From a virus (lineage: Duplodnaviria > Heunggongvirae > Uroviricota > Caudoviricetes): a stretch of 47,802 nt of DNA. Below the pieces are notes generated by a model. The model did not search any database, was not told the origin of the DNA, and saw only the letters and a list, made by a program, of their open reading frames with translations. Both the position numbers and the translations under genes were made by a program. The stretch lies in IMG/VR virus record IMGVR_UViG_2541047899_000009. One strand, written 5' to 3'. Positions 1-43,052 of the stretch are shown one piece after another. Numbering within the stretch: position 1 is the first letter of the stretch; each line of letters opens with the position of its first letter.

Positions 1-1284
1 TTACAGACTTCTTGAAGGTTGCGCAGCTGTTACAACACGCGGTTGATCTTCCGCGGCATCTTCCAGTGCACTTAAATCACGGTCTTTCACTTCTGGCATT
101 TTCAGCGCAGAGATTAAACCAATCACTGAATATGCCATGATCATAATGGCGATCGGATACCAGGATTCCGTCATGGTGCAGAAAATACCCGCCAGGATAG
201 GACCAAAACCGGAAGCGATAAGACCACCAATTTCTTTAGAAATGGCCATCCGGGTAAAGCGGTTTTTACAGCCGAACATTTCTGCCATGGTAATGTTTTC
301 CAGAGCAAATAATCCCAGCACCGCACAGTTATGAATCACAATCAGTGCCACCATAATGGTGCTCGGGGCATAGCTTTTATCTACGATGATAGAAAGCATT
401 GGCCATGCCAGCACAATCGCGGAGGTATTCATAATAATATACGGGATCCGGCGACCAATTTTATCGGATAACCAACCAAGGAACGGAATGGTCATAAAGC
501 CGAGAATCGAACTGATCATCAATGCATCTGTTGGAATTGCTTTGTTAAACAATAACGTCTGCACTAAATAGCCTGCAAGGAAAGTCTGAATTAAACCGGA
601 GTTACCAGCCTGACCAAAACGCAGCCCTGTTGCCAGCCAGAAGGATTTGCTCTGGAACATGCTACCAGCAGGTGCAGGTTTTGCTGTCGGTTGGTTGCTG
701 TCGTTAACCTTCTCAAAGACCGGGCTTTCTTTCAGATTCATACGCAACCAGATAGCAAAGACCATCACGACAACGCTCGCCAGGAACGGTATACGCCATC
801 CCCACGCAAGCAGTTCCTCTTTACTGAGAATGAAGAACATAAAGGCCCAGATTGCCGTTGCGCTCAAGGTTCCGCAGTTAGTCCCCATAGCCACAAATGA
901 GGAGATAATTCCGCGCTTACCTTTTGGCGCATATTCCGCCAGCATCGTACCGGCACCGGAAATTTCCGCACCTGCACCCAATCCCTGAATAATACGCAGC
1001 GTCACCAGCAAGATGGGTGCAAAAACACCAATCTGTGCATAGGTCGGTAACACACCAATTAAGGTGGTACAGATCCCCATCATGGTGATGGTAATAAAGA
1101 GTACTTTTTTACGCCCGATTCTGTCGCCCATTTTGCCGAAAATAAATGCTCCGACAATACGCGCCACATAACCTGCACCGTAGGTTCCCATTGCCAGAAT
1201 TAACGCCATTGCCGTTGATGATTCAGGAAAAAATATTTCATGAAACACTAACGCTGCGCCGAGCGAATATAACTGGAAATCCAT
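1..1284 (-). CDS. ydfJ: MFS-family inner-membrane metabolite transporter (YdfJ-like)
   Basis: 427-aa ORF with multiple hydrophobic helices and an MFS-type loop motif (GKMGDRIGRKK); stop codon at window positions 1-3. Symbol from recalled similarity to E. coli YdfJ. Confidence 0.8.
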   Translation of the reverse strand: MDFQLYSLGAALVFHEIFFPESSTAMALILAMGTYGAGYVARIVGAFIFGKMGDRIGRKKVLFITITMMGICTTLIGVLPTYAQIGVFAPILLVTLRIIQGLGAGAEISGAGTMLAEYAPKGKRGIISSFVAMGTNCGTLSATAIWAFMFFILSKEELLAWGWRIPFLASVVVMVFAIWLRMNLKESPVFEKVNDSNQPTAKPAPAGSMFQSKSFWLATGLRFGQAGNSGLIQTFLAGYLVQTLLFNKAIPTDALMISSILGFMTIPFLGWLSDKIGRRIPYIIMNTSAIVLAWPMLSIIVDKSYAPSTIMVALIVIHNCAVLGLFALENITMAEMFGCKNRFTRMAISKEIGGLIASGFGPILAGIFCTMTESWYPIAIMIMAYSVIGLISALKMPEVKDRDLSALEDAAEDQPRVVTAAQPSRSL

Positions 1285-16726: not shown

Positions 16727-17027
16727 AACGCACACCTCCGGAAATACCTTCCCCAAGATGCATCAGTTCTTCGTCCGTTCGCTCCGGTATCCCGTTCTCT
16801 TCCGGTAAAAGGCTGAAATCAGCCACCGCAGCATCACTGCTGCCGGACACCATTCTCACGATCAATGCCTTCAGCGAGGCAAACTGCGCATCCATCCACA
16901 CATCACTGAAGCTCTGCATCCGGAAATAATCGCCCCACTCACCAAGCTCAGTGGCCGACATTTCCGACAGCATCCGCCGCCAGTCTGCCCGCCGGAACTC
17001 CCGGGCAAGCCGCATGACAAACTGCAT
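16698..17027 (-). CDS. T: T segment of tail assembly chaperone GT (made by -1 programmed frameshift from G)
   Basis: 109-aa ORF in the -1 frame relative to G, beginning just after the G stop; conserved G/GT arrangement upstream of the tape measure gene. Confidence 0.7.
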   Translation of the reverse strand: MQFVMRLAREFRRADWRRMLSEMSATELGEWGDYFRMQSFSDVWMDAQFASLKALIVRMVSGSSDAAVADFSLLPEENGIPERTDEELMHLGEGISGGVRYGPDSQPGH

Positions 17028-28407: not shown

Positions 28408-28678
28408 GATGTTACCGTAGTATGTGAGTATCCATCGAATAGATACCAAGCAAAAAAGCTCCCGAAGGAGCCTTCATTTTCACTTTTTTAAATCCAACGA
28501 CAGACGGCTGGCATTTAAGTATTGTGAAATATTATCAAATGTAATCATCATTGATTTACAAAAGATACATTTTGCCCCGAAAGGATTCATGTCAGAAACA
28601 TCAAAAGATGATGTTCTATACTGGGAACCATGACAACACGGGCATCTAAAGTGAATATGGTTTGTAATATTGTCTACC

Positions 28679-28891
28679 TCAAAGCGCCACTACATGAACA
28701 GCGGCAGGACCTTTAGGTCCGTTCTCAATACCAAATTCAACTTCCTGATTCTCAGTTAATGTTTTGAAATCGTTGCTCTGAATTGCTGAGAAATGGACAA
28801 ACACATCTTTGCTGCCATCTTTCGGCGTGATGAAACCAAAACCTTTTTCAGGGTTAAACCATTTCACTAAACCAGTCATTTTGTTAGACAT
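28679..28891 (-). CDS. cspI: cold-shock protein (CspA family)
   Basis: 70 aa; RNP1/RNP2 motifs (KGFGFI, VFVHF); C-terminus ...PAAVHVVAL matches recalled CspI. Confidence 0.85.
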
Positions 28892-29253
28892 AATTATTAC
28901 CTTTTGAAGAAATTAGCCCTTGGGCAGAATGGTCCGAAAAAAAATATCAGAGAGAAAAACCAACAAGGAAATCTCAAGAGGTACAAATAATAAAATTATA
29001 ACAATGACTGCTTCAGATAAATTTGTAACAAACCAGAACACCATTAACGCATGATTAACCACCCATAGCAAGGATTACTTTTGTAAAGAAAAACACAGCA
29101 ATGAAAGAATAGCTTTATTTATTAATAAAACGTGTCATTCTGATTAAGACCTTTTATCTTACCCTTAAGATTTCAGGAATTTTGGCTCATGGAAGAGTCC
29201 TTTTTATTTAAATTTTACATTCCGCGATGTAAATGTTCCGATTTAATATTACC

Positions 29254-31283: not shown

Positions 31284-31562
31284 GATTGTGGTGCTTTTTG
31301 TGGGAGTCATCCACTTACGCACTTTGTTTTGCCATGCCAGCAGTTAGCTTCTGCTGTAAAACTATTCATGCAGCAAACCTGCACTTCACCACAATGGTTA
31401 GCATACTTTTCCTGATTAAGATTTTGCCAAATATGCTGGCCATTGTTTCATGTATTGGACCTCCTTAAATTTTATTAAAGAAATCCAATATTCACTACTC
31501 TGTCCGTATCTCTACTCAGGCATCAGCCTTCTTCGTTATCGTATACAGACGAGCGATGAATT

Positions 31563-31778
31563 TTAATCAGTAATGATGACATTTGCTGCTGCAGGACCTT
31601 TAGCACCACTCTCTATAGAGAAGGTAACCTTTTGACCTTCAAATAAGGTTCGATAATTATCATTCTGAATCGCAGAAAAATGCACAAACACATCTTTACT
31701 ACCATCAACAGGAGAAATAAAGCCGAAACCTTTATCAGCGTTAAACCATTTTACTAAACCAGTCATTTTATTTGACAT
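31563..31778 (-). CDS. cspB: cold-shock protein (CspA family)
   Basis: 71 aa: [67 protein letters not shown]...; recalled CspB. Confidence 0.85.
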
Positions 31779-32078
31779 TCTACATTCCTTAACTTGAGCC
31801 TTTCGGCATAAATGGTTTGCATAACAGAAACGACTTCGTACTTAATTGGAGAGACTCAAAGAAGGAATAAGTGAATAACACCTGAAATGAGAACTGCTTT
31901 AGTAAACTACTTCGTATATCGTCTGTTCTTCAAACCGACGCAATCATTAACGCATAGTTGAACATATGAAGCAATGTTTATTTTAGACATCCAGCCATCT
32001 TCAACCCCATCAAAAAACTATAGCTTTCTTCAGGAACGTGTGTATAGTGCGCCAAGTTATCAGTATTAAGGAATTTTT

Positions 32079-34808: not shown

Positions 34809-35169
34809 CGGTTGTCTCTGCTGGCGCAGCAGGTGCCAGTTGTTCAGGCTGGCGTATAAAGTATAAATAAACTGGTTCCAGTGTAAAGCCCCTACATTAA
34901 TGGAATAAAAGTCAAACAACAGATTGTTGGGATAAACACAACGCTTATTATTAAAAGCGATTAGATAAATTAAATTTTAATGTTATGCAATTTTACCAGA
35001 TCACCATAACATCTCGTTTGAAACCACCAAAACAACAACCATATCAATATTGATTATGTTAAAGTGAGTAAATATGGAAAACAACAAATCTGCACATTAC
35101 GCTCCTTTTTTATCTGTGATACTTTTTGTTTTATGCTGTGTGTGGGCATTATTTTTATAAAAATATTTA

Positions 35170-35198
35170 CAGATAAAATAAACCCGCCGAAGCGGGTT
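35170..35198 (-). terminator. rho-independent terminator of hokD mRNA
   Basis: Hairpin aacccgc-ttcg-gcgggtt followed on the minus strand by tattttat. Confidence 0.6.
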
Positions 35199-35266
35199 AA
35201 GTGCGGGTGCATTGAGGATGCCTGACACATCAGAGGTGGCGAGGGATTTCTCCCTCGCCTGGTCTC

Positions 35267-35422
35267 TTACTCCTCAGGTTCGTAAGCTGTGAAGACAGCG
35301 ACCTCCGTCTGGCCGGTTCGGATTCGTACCTCGCAGAGGTCTTTCCTCGTTACCAGTGCCGTCACTATGACGGTTAAACAGATGACGATCAGGGCGATTA
35401 ACATCGCCTTTTGCTGCTTCAT
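35267..35422 (-). CDS. hokD: Hok-family type I toxin
   Basis: 51 aa: MKQQKAMLIALIVICLTVIVTALVTRKDLCEVRIRTGQTEVAVFTAYEPEE; single TM helix, canonical Hok. The upstream in-frame extension and leader are consistent with mok/sok elements. Confidence 0.9.
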   Translation of the reverse strand: MKQQKAMLIALIVICLTVIVTALVTRKDLCEVRIRTGQTEVAVFTAYEPEE

Positions 35423-35699
35423 AGCCTGCTTCTCCTTGCCTTTCGGCACGTAAGAGGCTAACCTACATGTGTCTAGCATGAAATTGGCCTCAGATTAATG
35501 TTAAGCGTCTTGCAGGACGCGTAATGTTAACTGGGGCTTTTCTCTATCTGCCTTTGGTGTTCATGCCTGAGACAGATAGCCTCAAGCACCCGCAGCCATT
35601 CTACTTAACTCCCGTCACCTCGCCAATATGAAATCAATCAGAAAGGCGAACCATAAGAGCAATAGCAAGACAATAAGGCCCGCATGGTCGTACAAAGAC

Positions 35700-38498
35700 T
35701 CAGGCACCGTGACATTTTTTGTACTTTATTCCCGAGCCACAGGGGCATTGTTCATTCCGGCCGACCGCACCAAAAACTTCAGTTAATTTAGTCTTTGCTG
35801 CTTTATGGGCAAGCTGTACGATGTAATTTGATTGATTTTGGATTTCTTGACGCTGTACACCTGTGAGGCCTTCGATATAGGGAGCAAGGCGCTGCATTTC
35901 GACATCAGCTGCTTTATGCTGACCCGATAGTGCCAATATGACTGCGTACTGGCTTCGAACCTGAATCAGTCGATGTACTAGACCTGCCTCATTGACAACC
36001 GGCAGGACATGTTGCTCCATGACTTCCTTGGCACCGTCGTAATCCTTTATGGCAACAAACTCATCCGCCAGATCTTGGCCCACCCTGACCATGGATTCCG
36101 GGGCCATGGCCAGATTGTAGAACTTCATCGAATGAATACGCAGTAATGGTGACAGTTTTCCCTGCGCATCACGAATTCTGGCCAGCAACTCCAGAGCATC
36201 AGCCATATGTTTAAAGTGTTCCTGCATATTTTCGGAATGATTAATAGTTTTCCATAATGCGTCGGCGTTTTTTCCTATGACATCAGCAGGTGTGATACCA
36301 AATAAAGAATAGTACCCTTGTATAACATTACAGCTTAATGTTTCAGCATCCTTGAGTTTTTTTAATCTCCAGAGTGCAATGGCATGGTTGTAGTCAAAGA
36401 TGCGTTTATGTTCTTCATCTGGGAGTTGGGGGCGGACTTCCTGTGCCAGCTTTTGAACTTCTCGTGCATCATTGCTTTCTGCCGAAAATAACATTCGTTT
36501 CATTGCATAGGCCATCTCTTCTTGATAGCCGAACTTGTGCTCCGCAAGTAAAGCTCCCATGATGTTTAACCTCTGAGCAATGTGGTCGGATATTCCGTCT
36601 TTAAGCTCAACGAAAACAAGGCCATCCAATGCCCAGAATTTATGAACAGGTCCCAATAAGTCCGATGTTGCAGCACGCTCCAAGCTTGCAAGAATGTCGA
36701 CCGTCACGCCCATCTCATAAAACATTTCTTGGCCTGAGAGTTCGATCAACGTCGTGACATCATTAAGCTTAATATAAAGTTGAGTCAACAACGATAACCG
36801 TTTTGTATTGCGGGTATTATGAAGACTTTCAACTAAAAGGTCTTTCAGCGCTAGTAGCGCTTTGTTCGATATACCCTGATCCATCAGTTCCAGATGTTGC
36901 AGTCCTAGCCCCCTGACAGCATCATGTACCTTCAGGGTCTGGTTTCCATAAATTTCAATAGTGCCAGTAGCGCGCATTTTCCTAATTAAAGAAGCCGCAC
37001 TGCTTGGTGAAATGTTCAGCGAATTGATTAGGAGCGTAGAAATCTCTTCGCGACTCAGCCCTACGTCAGAGAGACTGAACAATGCCAGCGCGCTCTGAAG
37101 TAGTGATTCAAATCCCTGAAATACACGTGACAGAATAATTTCTTGGGCGGTTTCCGCAGTATGGGTTTGTTGCTGGAGTTCAGCACACAGAGCATCGACA
37201 CTACGCTCATAGTCAGAAACGGCGATTTTTGCGGCGCTCTCTACATACAGGGGAAGACCACCAGTGTAAGCCCGTAGCTGCTCGTATCCCATAGCGGTGG
37301 CAAATCCTCCGATATCGTTTACAACGACAGCTACCGTATCGAGATTCCATCCCTGCAGGCCCTCGCGCTGTAGCCCCGTCATGACCTCCAGTTCGCGAAC
37401 GTTTTCGTGAGGCTGGCACAACAGCACAAAACGAATATGTGTAGTTGCATTCAGAACATCCCGTAGATTTTCCGCAGGTACACGATGGGCGTTATCCAGA
37501 ACCAGCACCAAGGTGGTACCCTGCTCTTTCAGGTAGGTATCAAAACTCCTAAGAGCCTCAAAACCACTGGCTCCGGGGAGCAAAATCCTGCGCAAACCGT
37601 CTTGGTCACGGGCTGTAAATCTAGCAGCCATCTCCCGCACCAGCGTACTGGCCAGAGCTGGACCGGGAAGATCACCGGTGTCGTAATAAGCACAAAGTGC
37701 AGTGGAGTGTAATGCGGCCTGTGCGGCCCACGCTGTCTTGCCTGCACCTGAGAGTCCACAAAGGATACGGATCCGCTCACCAGATGTGAGAGAAGGTTCT
37801 TCGTTTTGTGGGCGGTACAGTGCTGGTGGTGCAGGAAAGTCCTGTAGCTGAACGATCAACTGTTCAAATAGTTCAGTAAGTTCCTCCGTGAAAAACGTAT
37901 GTTGTCCATTGGTATCGCCTCCGGTGGCGGCAAGCTGAACCAACCCTGCTAACTTCCAAATCAAGGATTCTGGGGACAATAGTGAAAATTTCAGCTTTTC
38001 TGCTTCTGCGATACACCATGTGGCCGCATCAGCCAGAGTACTCCATGCGGGCGGAAGTGCCGGGTGACGTCCAGCTGTCGACCGGGGCCAGACAATAAGA
38101 ACATCAGAAGGAAGCTTTTTATCGTCAATCATCTTCTGAAGCAGCGGTCCAGGCGCCTGGTTTACAATAATCACAAAAGAAGCCACCCCTTCGCGGTTTG
38201 CCGAAGTATGCTCATTTCTGAGCTTTACAAATCGCTCCAGAGCCCCCGACACATCGTTGGGCATAATAGGCTTTGAACGGGTTTTAACCTGAATGTAGAG
38301 ACGTTCCTGTTTGGATTTCAGCTCAATATCCTCATCAAGCTCGACAGTTACTGAGTCCATAGCAGCCCTCTGCGCCAAAAGTAAGCAGCCTACAGCGTAA
38401 AGATGCTGGTAAAGGAACCCCCGGTGTACCGCTTCGATACGCACCAACTGCACAGGATCCAGTACGTCCAGATGTTGTTTGTTTTCACTTCCCCACAT
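35700..38498 (-). CDS. STAND-like P-loop NTPase with N-terminal nuclease-like domain, helical repeat region and C-terminal SEC-C zinc motif; candidate Avs/NLR-like antiphage defence protein
   Basis: 932 aa. Walker A GLSGAGKT (about aa 248-255), Walker B LVLVLD (about aa 330-335), possible PD-(D/E)xK-like residues in the N-terminal 80 aa (VELDEDIELK...YIQVK), about 550 aa of predicted helical repeats, terminal CPCGSGIKYKKCHG. Single large gene flanked by AT-rich spacers immediately upstream of hokD. Confidence 0.6.
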   Translation of the reverse strand: MWGSENKQHLDVLDPVQLVRIEAVHRGFLYQHLYAVGCLLLAQRAAMDSVTVELDEDIELKSKQERLYIQVKTRSKPIMPNDVSGALERFVKLRNEHTSANREGVASFVIIVNQAPGPLLQKMIDDKKLPSDVLIVWPRSTAGRHPALPPAWSTLADAATWCIAEAEKLKFSLLSPESLIWKLAGLVQLAATGGDTNGQHTFFTEELTELFEQLIVQLQDFPAPPALYRPQNEEPSLTSGERIRILCGLSGAGKTAWAAQAALHSTALCAYYDTGDLPGPALASTLVREMAARFTARDQDGLRRILLPGASGFEALRSFDTYLKEQGTTLVLVLDNAHRVPAENLRDVLNATTHIRFVLLCQPHENVRELEVMTGLQREGLQGWNLDTVAVVVNDIGGFATAMGYEQLRAYTGGLPLYVESAAKIAVSDYERSVDALCAELQQQTHTAETAQEIILSRVFQGFESLLQSALALFSLSDVGLSREEISTLLINSLNISPSSAASLIRKMRATGTIEIYGNQTLKVHDAVRGLGLQHLELMDQGISNKALLALKDLLVESLHNTRNTKRLSLLTQLYIKLNDVTTLIELSGQEMFYEMGVTVDILASLERAATSDLLGPVHKFWALDGLVFVELKDGISDHIAQRLNIMGALLAEHKFGYQEEMAYAMKRMLFSAESNDAREVQKLAQEVRPQLPDEEHKRIFDYNHAIALWRLKKLKDAETLSCNVIQGYYSLFGITPADVIGKNADALWKTINHSENMQEHFKHMADALELLARIRDAQGKLSPLLRIHSMKFYNLAMAPESMVRVGQDLADEFVAIKDYDGAKEVMEQHVLPVVNEAGLVHRLIQVRSQYAVILALSGQHKAADVEMQRLAPYIEGLTGVQRQEIQNQSNYIVQLAHKAAKTKLTEVFGAVGRNEQCPCGSGIKYKKCHGA

Positions 38499-38732
38499 AA
38501 CCTATTCCTTGAGCTATTTGTTTGACGGACTCACATTAGTACTTCAATGTAATCAATTGAACTTGAATTATAATTAAAAGAGGCAAAGAAAAGTCATTTG
38601 GCCTATTCTCCGTTGATTAATACAAACTAACGATACCAACGTTCACCTGACTCAAAGCTGACAACCAGACTAGGTCTGGGCCTGTGCCATCGAAGTGTCA
38701 ATTAATATCTGAACTAATGCTCTTTAATTTCG

Positions 38733-42994: not shown

Positions 42995-43052
42995 TTTCTG
43001 GTGACGTTTGGCGGTATCAGTTTTACTCCGTGACTGCTCTGCCGCCGTTTTT
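42995..43052 (+). ncRNA. dicF: DicF small regulatory RNA (ftsZ-targeting)
   Basis: tttctggtgacgtttggcggtatcagttttactccgtgactgctctgccgccgttttt matches the recalled DicF sequence, including the 3' stem-loop and U-tract; located upstream of dicB. Confidence 0.85.

Follow-up and report, generated by a model that had tools for sequence, protein, structure and literature searches.

Several described loci of the hok/mok/sok family can serve as references for the locus analysed here. The paradigm of the family is hok/mok/sok (parB) of plasmid R1, in which cleavage of the duplex by RNase III and trimming of hok mRNA at its 3' end were demonstrated (PMC9841398). A prophage-borne relative, hokW/mokW/sokW (GenBank AF125520), was found in Stx2 phages 933W and Sp5, in which HokW was toxic and could be neutralised by sokW, and the locus aided lysis after induction (Takada et al. 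2021, PMC8621323). This system was partially RNase III-dependent, and after prophage induction sokW RNA disappeared and HokW appeared in a RecA-dependent manner (PMC8621323). HokW, which is nearly identical to the Hok protein of the present locus, shared 44% identity with R1 Hok (PMC8621323). In K-12, hokD (relF) is carried by the cryptic prophage Qin and is co-transcribed with relBE (Gotfredsen and Gerdes 1998, cited second-hand).

The window, i.e. the whole stretch of 47,802 nucleotides that was analysed, is a complete Qin-like lambdoid prophage of E. coli. RefSeq annotated a 51-aa CDS named hokD at the locus and nothing else. The region 35423..35699 upstream of it, judged by its sequence, is an intact and ordinary hok/mok/sok type I toxin-antitoxin control region. 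A complete, self-contained cassette of the hokD/hokW type very probably extends over about 35180..35676 (Table 1) in the early-right (Cro-to-Q) gene block of the prophage, with the edge of the conserved hok module at 35676. The Rfam model RF01794 (sok) matched over its full length at 35417..35591 on the minus strand (118.3 bits, cut-off 59, E = 1.9e-26), and beside it no other credible match was found in 35000..35900. With this score and the 93.5% identity to hokW/mokW/sokW of 933W, the hok-like character of the region lies far beyond chance. The hok/sok-type leader proposed in the original prediction was thus borne out by the Rfam match and by homology to annotated loci.

The family name (sok antitoxin) and the strand of the match could be taken to mean that 35417..35591 on the minus strand encoded the Sok RNA itself and that the plus strand had no gene of its own, but such a reading is extremely improbable. 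The match has the sense orientation of the hok mRNA. The model starts at 35591, at the 5' end of the hok mRNA (GGGUGCUUGAGG, homologous to GGCGCUUGAGG of an R1-like plasmid locus), passes over the mok start and the hok AAGGAG, and ends at the hok AUG, so it models the sense leader. Annotated sokW and sokC lie opposite to the hok strand and are about 60-70 nt long.

Table 1. Features placed at the hokD locus of the window (mRNA positions: nt i = window position 35592 - i)
Feature	Window position	Strand	mRNA position (nt)	Sequence or basis
hok promoter	35598..35626	-		-35 TTGGCG (35626..35621), 17-nt spacer, -10 TAGAAT (35603..35598)
Full-length hok mRNA, ~415 nt	35176..35591	-		Rfam model start and intrinsic terminator
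tac (translational activator element)	35580..35591	-	1-12	Pairings in predicted folds
Metastable 5' hairpin of nascent transcript	35563..35589	-	3-13/19-29	Consensus fold of five leaders
ucb / anti-SD	35533..35539	-	53-59	AAGCCCC; pairings in predicted folds
mok Shine-Dalgarno (SD)	35488..35491	-	101-104	GAGG; read from sequence, 8 nt ahead of mok AUG
Sok target hairpin of shortened mRNA	35454..35491	-		Forms in fold of mRNA 1-360
mok, 70 codons	35267..35479	-		ORF list; in frame with hok, common stop codon
hok Shine-Dalgarno	35432..35437	-	155-160	AAGGAG; read from sequence, invariant in five-way alignments
hok (HokD) toxin gene, 51 aa	35267..35422	-		Pfam PF01848 HOK_GEF
GC-rich hairpin directly past hok stop codon	35238..35259	-	333-354	Present in all predicted folds
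fbi (fold-back inhibitory element)	35205..35217	-	375-387	CCUCAAUGCACCC; unconstrained fold
Intrinsic terminator of hok mRNA	35181..35198	-		AACCCGCTTCGGCGGGTT then TATTTTAT; terminator scan
sok promoter	35436..35464	+		-35 TTGCCT (35436-35441), 17-nt spacer, -10 TAACCT (35459-35464)
Predicted Sok antisense RNA, ~71 nt	35471..~35541	+		Coordinates transferred from annotated sokW and sokC

The Hok protein of the window matched its Pfam family with E = 3e-23 (81.6 bits, cut-off 22) and was identical to K-12 HokD. An in-frame upstream extension of hokD had been pointed out in the original prediction and is real, since the ORF list contained a 70-aa ORF made of MLDTCRLASYVPKGKEKQA followed by the 51-aa Hok, whose ATG is at 35422. 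It is mok itself and not something extra to mok, for it aligned with the mokW (MLNTCRLASYVPKGKEKQA...) and mokC annotations, each likewise extending hok in frame by 19 codons. The mok of an R1-like plasmid locus used for comparison was also in frame with its hok. The mok SD is the same GAGG motif as in R1 (PMC9841398). The leader length of about 280 nt given in the original prediction agrees with the interval 35423..35699 (277 nt), but the transcribed leader would be only ~169 nt long (35591..35423), the other 108 nt consisting of the hok promoter and non-transcribed spacer.

The hok promoter was the sole sigma-70-like site from the promoter scan on the minus strand, and its TAGAAT aligned with TATGAT of the R1-like locus. 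In IMG/VR loci TAGAAT was kept together with TTGGCG, TTTGCG, TTGGCT or TTGGCA 17 nt upstream, despite unrelated sequence farther upstream. The transcript would start at G35591, taken as +1, and its 3' end was set by the intrinsic terminator. The GC-rich hairpin past the hok stop codon, homologous in position to the GGCGGGC...GCCCGCC hairpin of the R1-like locus, is likely the 3'-terminal protective stem of the processed mRNA, a role suggested by the R1 description (PMC9841398).

The sok promoter was placed by homology and by published mutagenesis primers. It was absent from the output of the strict promoter scan because its -10 matches TATAAT at only three of six positions. Together with the first two transcribed bases it was base-for-base identical to that of sokW, and it aligned with TTGCGC-17-TATCCT of the R1-like locus. 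Primers YO-421 and YO-422 changed TAACCTA into GAGCCGG in the promoter-less sokW construct of Takada et al. (2021); the -10 of sokW mutated there is the same TAACCT, and antitoxin activity was lost (PMC8621323). The Sok RNA, placed from the coordinates of sokW (58664..58734 in 933W) and sokC (16952..17010 in K-12), was predicted to have a single-stranded 5' tail GUCUAGCAUGAAAU, then a long terminator hairpin (~35486..35538) that ends in a run of U, with a fold of -30.3 kcal/mol and an architecture as in SokW and SokC. It was complementary to nt 51-121 of the hok mRNA, a stretch that takes in ucb as well as the SD and AUG of mok.

In the unconstrained minimum-energy fold of the full-length mRNA, tac and fbi (nt 375-387) formed 12 pairs with one bulge, and nt 55-59 of ucb paired with the mok SD. 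In the 3'-shortened fold, tac paired instead with nt 53-59 of ucb, and SD nt 101-105 paired with dcb nt 134-138 (35458..35454) in the target hairpin, leaving the loop CUAGACA at nt 116-122 (35476..35470). This tac/ucb and SD/dcb arrangement was obtained with the mRNA shortened to 360, 365 or 374 nt, and a different 5' fold with 370 nt, which leaves the switch well though unevenly supported, minimum-energy folds of ~400-nt RNAs being fallible. The R1-like plasmid control, folded alike, gave the same 5'-3' pairing at full length and the same switch after shortening. The predicted folds of the full-length and the 3'-shortened mRNA reproduce the switch of plasmid R1 and agree with the R1 model as given in PMC9841398.

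A consensus fold of five leaders (window, 933W, Rac-type, hokC and R1-like) retained the metastable hairpin and the ucb/SD helix, with three compensatory pairs. All 11 pairs of the metastable hairpin were kept, one of them through a compensatory change, and its R1 counterpart has been described (PMC9841398). An equivalent target hairpin was predicted in all 20 sequence variants examined (-9.6 to -16.9 kcal/mol). The mok frame, the sok promoter and the fold-back elements, which the original prediction had expected and left unplaced, could all be placed at positions homologous to annotated loci: fold-back appears as tac/fbi in the full-length fold and as tac/ucb after shortening, and the expected antisense RNA as a predicted plus-strand gene whose promoter is identical to that of sokW. 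The outcomes named in the original prediction as refuting it, the lack of a conserved sok promoter or antisense structure or a leader too disrupted to fold, did not occur.

By homology with plasmid R1 and hokW-sokW, and with the support of the predicted folds, a mechanism can be proposed. The weak promoter at 35626..35598 would yield the ~415-nt hok mRNA, the 5' end of which would be held by the local hairpin during synthesis. In the finished mRNA the 5' tac would pair with the 3' fbi and ucb would mask the mok ribosome-binding site, so that neither translation of mok and hok nor binding of Sok would occur. Slow 3' trimming to the GC-rich hairpin would remove fbi, then tac would capture ucb, and the mok SD and AUG would enter a hairpin with an exposed loop. 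If Sok, transcribed from TTGCCT-17-TAACCT on the opposite strand, is present, its free 5' tail would contact this loop and the duplex would be destroyed. When the short-lived Sok is lost, mok would be translated and the hok start opened, giving the 51-aa membrane toxin. The role most likely lies in killing or lysis once transcription from the prophage copy ceases or is altered, for example on prophage loss, induction or infection; this is the least certain step. HokW gives such help with lysis after induction.

Intact anatomy does not ensure activity. The cassette might be silent, with no natural release of toxin, and be carried along with the prophage like chromosomal hokA, hokB and hokC; of the five hok genes in K-12, four are reported to be inactive, and K-12 tolerates hokD without the entire control region. 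Silence is nevertheless unlikely here. Over 67 distinct homologous mRNAs, all encoding identical HokD, the diversity was 0.000 in tac, 0.009 in ucb, 0.006 in SD and 0.02 in fbi, and such near-invariance of the switch elements amid variable neighbouring bases argues for ongoing selection on them. In addition, the majority of the 18 leader variants had an open mok frame (one variant, with eight sequences, had mok shifted to a 19-codon frame, and a script found no mok start in two), the promoter was kept in unrelated upstream contexts, and the near-identical hokW-sokW is functional and influences phage release (PMC8621323).

A different pattern was observed in the 22-nt segment of the Sok 5' tail and target loop (35465..35486), where the diversity was 0.31 against 0.014 at hok third-codon positions. 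The segment of first contact between Sok and target was thus more than 20 times as variable as the third-codon positions of loci with an identical toxin. It existed in 18 sequence variants, every one keeping a hairpin. One tentative explanation is diversifying selection on this segment, by which each prophage copy would answer only to its own antitoxin; if true, co-resident or superinfecting lambdoid phages with the same toxin would be regulated, or would exclude each other, independently. Chimeras in which the 5' half of a variant was joined to the 3' half of a different one folded at -12.6 kcal/mol versus -13.6 for native hairpins, a weak effect in non-independent data (p ~0.008), and the inner stem alone gave -3.3 versus -3.8 kcal/mol (p ~0.04). 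Within single genomes just two pairs could be compared, one with differing and one with identical variants. Column-by-column counting of pairs in the target hairpin was abandoned, since the register of the inner stem differs between variants and MAFFT displaces the SD region of two of them.

The gene upstream of the module encodes a 932-aa STAND-like protein. Against Pfam it gave AAA_22 (E = 2.4e-8, passing the cut-off), AAA_16 (E = 3.6e-4, failing it), an N-terminal Cap4-nuclease-like domain (E = 5.7e-6) and a SEC-C motif at the C-terminus. Only domain-level matches were obtained from PADLOC, NCBIfam and PDB sequences. Between the DUF977 gene of the prophage and the hok module lies an exchangeable cargo slot, whose gene content differs by strain and includes an AbiH-family abortive-infection gene, a relBE toxin-antitoxin pair and the nuclease/NTPase-domain protein.

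The original prediction put the stop codon of the STAND-like gene at the 5' edge of the leader, which did not hold: the stop codon (35700-35702, minus strand) precedes the hok mRNA start by 108 nt and the edge of the conserved module by 24 nt. Neither the terminator scan nor folding gave a terminator-like hairpin between this gene and hok, the 108 nt folding no better than shuffled sequence (z = 0.21), so part of the hok transcription could originate upstream, and read-through from the STAND-like gene is possible. It could even be supposed that hok is mainly the distal gene of an upstream unit, either with the STAND-like gene in the lysogen or with the early-right operon after induction, as in relB-relE-hokD of K-12, and that read-through collides head-on with the sok promoter and favours the toxin. 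The genes from cro to Q all share one strand with the STAND-like gene and hok, the co-transcription of K-12 hokD with relBE offers a precedent, and the behaviour of sokW (its RNA gone and HokW present after induction, RecA-dependently; PMC8621323) would fit.

This supposition is rather improbable. The hok gene has its own promoter, which is conserved whatever lies upstream, including divergent neighbours (the AbiH gene in strain 503025 and a 449-aa gene in mEp460), and the strict scan gave no sigma-70-like promoter upstream of the STAND-like gene. Read-through transcripts would still carry tac and fbi and should therefore still be locked. Moreover, hokW of 933W adjoins the tail-fibre region instead of the Cro-to-Q block and is on the strand opposite to the neighbouring tail-fibre gene, so the induction effect there is not explicable by co-directional read-through.

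The module is present in about half of complete E. coli genomes, which is already known: at least 80% of a 571-nt query was contained in 2,700 of 5,426. Among the sampled phage-derived loci encoding identical HokD, the full leader was found in 77 of 80, making the intact form the commoner one there. The current understanding of hok/sok is unchanged by this locus, and the main practical value is for annotation, as base-level positions can now be given for mok, Sok RNA and the switch elements of the mRNA.

Among the known systems, hokW/mokW/sokW was very close, its 93.5% nucleotide identity extending over 417 nt. The sok promoter, tac, ucb and SD were identical, the same 70-codon in-frame mok was present, and Sok had the same length and fold. 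Mok differed from MokW at one residue in the 19-residue extension, five of the first 15 Sok bases differed in the 5' tail/target loop (GUCUAGCAUGAAAUU in the window, GUUCAGCAUGGAUUG in sokW), and the Hok C-terminus read FTAYEPEE in the window and FVDYESEK in HokW. Upstream of 35611 the window was unrelated to the 933W locus. The locus of phage mEp460 shared 97.4% identity with the window.

K-12 Qin occupies the same chromosomal site (ydfJ) with the same flanking ydfU and ydfT as the prophage of the window. Over 35180..35436, a stretch comprising the CDS, 3' hairpin, fbi and terminator, its hokD shared 98.4% nucleotide identity with the window, and the homology ended at 35436, directly upstream of the hok SD. 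In K-12 relB-relE stood in place of the hok promoter, tac, ucb, mok start, Sok target, Sok RNA and most of the sok promoter, with one base only of the sok -35 left. K-12 hokD, something of an oddity in textbooks, is thus the 3' part of the cassette (CDS and 3' UTR), with relBE replacing everything upstream of the hok SD, whereas the window holds the unbroken form, in which hokD retains the hok-family control region lost in K-12.

The hokC (gef)/mokC/sokC locus of K-12 had the same element order, with tac and ucb identical to those of the window and annotated SokC beginning at the homologous G, but its overall sequence similarity was clearly lower. Its Sok hairpin was shorter since ~18 nt were absent, and with IS186 located ~20 bp downstream of hokC, similarity to the 3' UTR of the window, fbi included, was lost past the stop codon. 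The R1 leader could be aligned with the window in blocks only. The placement of the promoter was the same in both, and R1 counterparts exist for tac/fbi, ucb/SD, the tac/ucb switch, the SD/dcb hairpin, the sok promoter position and the 3' protective hairpin. The R1 locus is a plasmid-stability system, whereas the copy in the window is prophage-borne.

The region between the 932-aa gene and hokD on the minus strand resembled a hok leader beyond chance, and with hokD it very probably makes up a complete hok/mok/sok cassette, which is an ordinary and already known kind of locus. The whole of Rfam model RF01794 ("sok") was aligned to 35417..35591 (-) with 118.3 bits (cut-off 59, E = 1.9e-26), and a permissive Rfam rescan of 35000..35900 gave no other credible match. 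The locus was 93.5% identical over 417 nt to that of Stx2 phage 933W, in which hokW, mokW and sokW are all annotated, and 97.4% identical to that of phage mEp460. The original prediction of a hok/sok-type leader upstream of hokD was thus confirmed as an observation and supported in its interpretation, with corrected coordinates. The RF01794 alignment started at GGGUGCUUGAGG, crossed the mok start and the hok AAGGAG, and stopped at the hok AUG; since it spans the mRNA from its 5' end to the hok AUG, the model describes the hok mRNA leader in sense orientation and not the antisense RNA of its name. An annotation based on this model would assign "sok" to the wrong strand and overstate its length by about 100 nt. 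In RefSeq, the hokD CDS alone is annotated at the locus.

Features of the cassette and its surroundings. mRNA nt i corresponds to window position 35592 - i; diversity was taken over 67 distinct mRNAs, all with identical HokD, a choice by identical protein that depresses CDS diversity
Feature	Window position	Strand	mRNA nt	Diversity	Remarks
hokD	35267..35422	minus			51-aa CDS
mok	35267..35479	minus			70-aa ORF: 19-codon in-frame extension MLDTCRLASYVPKGKEKQA + hok (ORF list)
mok SD			101-104	0.006	GAGG
mok AUG	35479..35477	minus	113-115		
hok promoter	35626..35598	minus			TTGGCG-17-TAGAAT; only sigma-70-like site on minus strand
tac			1-12	0.000	
ucb			55-59	0.009	GCCCC
Variable segment	35486..35465		106-127	0.31	mok start, target loop, Sok 5' tail (plus strand)
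hok third-codon positions				0.014	CDS diversity depressed by sampling
GC-rich hairpin			333-354		directly 3' of hok stop codon
fbi	35217..35205		375-387	0.02	
Intrinsic terminator of hok mRNA	35198..35181	minus			after GC-rich hairpin
sok promoter	35436-41, 35459-64	plus			TTGCCT, 17-nt spacer, TAACCT
Sok RNA	G35471 to ~35541	plus			transferred from annotated sokW (933W) and sokC (K-12)
932-aa upstream gene	35700..38498	minus			stop codon 35700-35702 (ORF list)
cspA-type thermoregulator leader	28652..29037	minus			112.8 bits; in cspI region
cspA-type thermoregulator leader	31547..31939	minus			158.8 bits; upstream of cspB
DicF sRNA match	42996..43047	plus			72.5 bits

From the position of the hok promoter, the +1 of the mRNA was placed at G35591; the Rfam match also begins at this base, which is homologous to GGCGCUUGAGG in an R1-like plasmid-borne hok locus used for comparison. 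Among 80 phage-derived loci with identical HokD, TAGAAT was kept with TTGGCG, TTTGCG, TTGGCT or TTGGCA 17 nt upstream, and the promoter was retained even beside unrelated sequence further upstream. With this start, 169 nt of leader precede the hok AUG, so the length of about 280 nt claimed before was not upheld, but the in-frame extension of hokD claimed with it was found. The mok frame enters hok in phase and shares its stop codon, a build also seen in annotated mokW, mokC and the R1-like mok; thus the extension is mok itself, which had been suggested as a probable element. Mok residues 2-5 varied freely among the 67 mRNAs. In one variant (v3, eight distinct IMG/VR sequences), the target loop has lost 2 nt, which puts mok out of frame and leaves a 19-codon upstream ORF (MRHIEISLLRTERSRRSRL) with its stop close to the hok start, so the in-frame Mok-Hok fusion is incidental and not essential to the design.

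Alignment to characterised loci (coordinates of sokW, sokC, mokW and mokC) placed mok, the sok promoter and Sok, and the antisense element, previously only called probable, could be assigned to the plus strand. Window and sokW were identical base for base between the -35 and the second transcribed base, both included. In a sokW construct losing antitoxin activity, TAACCTA was changed to GAGCCGG with primers YO-421 and YO-422 (Takada et al. 2021, PMC8621323), and exactly this TAACCTA is present in the window, where it contains the sok -10 (TAACCT). In the predicted Sok fold, a 5' tail of about 14 nt is single-stranded and is followed by a long terminator hairpin, then a U run, the same architecture as SokW and SokC. 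Sok is complementary to hok mRNA nt 51-121, including the mok AUG, mok SD and ucb.

In the unconstrained fold of the full-length mRNA (418 nt), tac paired with fbi, and ucb with the mok SD. When the mRNA was shortened to nt 360, 365 or 374, the partner of tac became AAGCCCC (nt 53-59) and the SD paired with dcb (nt 134-138), giving a hairpin whose loop CUAGACA (nt 116-122) is complementary to the six bases at the 5' end of Sok. With the mRNA cut back to nt 370 the 5' arrangement was different, so the prediction was not uniform. The R1-like locus, as positive control, showed the same full-length and shortened architectures, and both agree with the R1 model (Le Rhun et al. 2022, PMC9841398). Thus the leader is predicted to fold like hok mRNAs, with a switch from tac/fbi to tac/ucb as in the control. 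When five leaders (window, 933W, Rac-type, hokC and R1-like) were folded to a consensus, both the 5' metastable hairpin (nt 3-13 paired to nt 19-29) and the helix of ucb and SD were retained, with compensatory changes upholding three pairs. The GC-rich hairpin lies where the protective 3' stem of the processed R1 mRNA does.

Diversity was concentrated in the variable segment, where 18 variants were found and the hairpin was predicted to form in all of them. When chimeras were used to test whether the two halves of the hairpin are co-adapted, the effect was weak. Sok/target specificity could be diversifying among prophage copies, which is an idea and not a result.

Beside the anatomy, homology and predicted folds found here, an R1-type hok/mok/sok mechanism is proposed for the cassette, in which the ends of the transcripts, their processing, the short life of Sok and the toxicity of Hok would be as in hokW-sokW and R1. 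Its biological role is less certain. HokW aids lysis and phage release after induction (Takada et al. 2021, PMC8621323). Chromosomal hok loci tested earlier, by contrast, are reported to have mediated no post-segregational killing.

The cassette lies in a Qin-like lambdoid prophage inserted at E. coli ydfJ, with complete gene content in the order integrase, repressor, cro, replication genes, then Q, lysis, head and tail genes; excisionase, terminase and capsid genes were also present. In structure, the window appears to be a complete relative of Qin, the cryptic prophage of K-12, with the ydfJ site common to both. The DicF match and two cspA-type leaders are usual for Qin-type prophages, and no RNA features were contained in the RefSeq feature table retrieved for the stretch. 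The 571 bases queried (35150..35720) were 100% identical to three RefSeq chromosomes, and at least 80% of this query was present in 2,700 of 5,426 complete E. coli genomes.

The conserved hok module ended at 35676, and homology to other prophages returned at ~38633-38653, near a DUF977 gene. Judged by sequence comparison, the intervening ~3 kb (35677..~38640) is an exchangeable cargo slot, holding the 932-aa gene alone in the window, an AbiH-family gene and a 463-aa gene on the opposite strand in strain 503025, a 449-aa gene in mEp460, and relBE and more in K-12. In the 932-aa protein, the N-terminus was Cap4-nuclease-like, a P-loop NTPase region matched AAA_22 (and AAA_16, though below the cut-off), and a SEC-C motif was present at the C-terminus. 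Searches of PADLOC, NCBIfam and PDB gave no match over its full length; "STAND-like" is a plausible description. Between its stop and the hok +1, no terminator-like hairpin was found and the RNA folded no better than shuffled sequence. Read-through into hok is thus possible, starting in the 932-aa gene or, once the prophage is induced, in the early-right operon, as all genes from cro to Q lie on this strand; it would meet the sok promoter head-on. Conservation of the module's own promoter in many contexts argues that read-through is not required.

K-12 hokD matched the window across 35180..35436 only (98.4% identity), covering the CDS, 3' hairpin, fbi and terminator, with the homology breakpoint exactly at 35436/35437. 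Codon 47 of hok (35282..35284, minus) is TAC with a G after it, a Tyr codon in a TACG context identical in K-12 hokD; for K-12, Bar-Yaacov et al. 2017 (PMC5630033) reported TadA A-to-I editing that turns the Tyr at alignment position 46 into Cys. The full leader was kept in 77 of 80 IMG/VR loci with identical HokD, and the K-12 breakpoint occurred in the other three. Upstream of the hok SD in K-12, relE and relB replace the whole leader and sok, and relBE and hokD are co-transcribed. Thus K-12 hokD, which retains only the part from CDS to terminator, is a beheaded form of the whole cassette found in the window.
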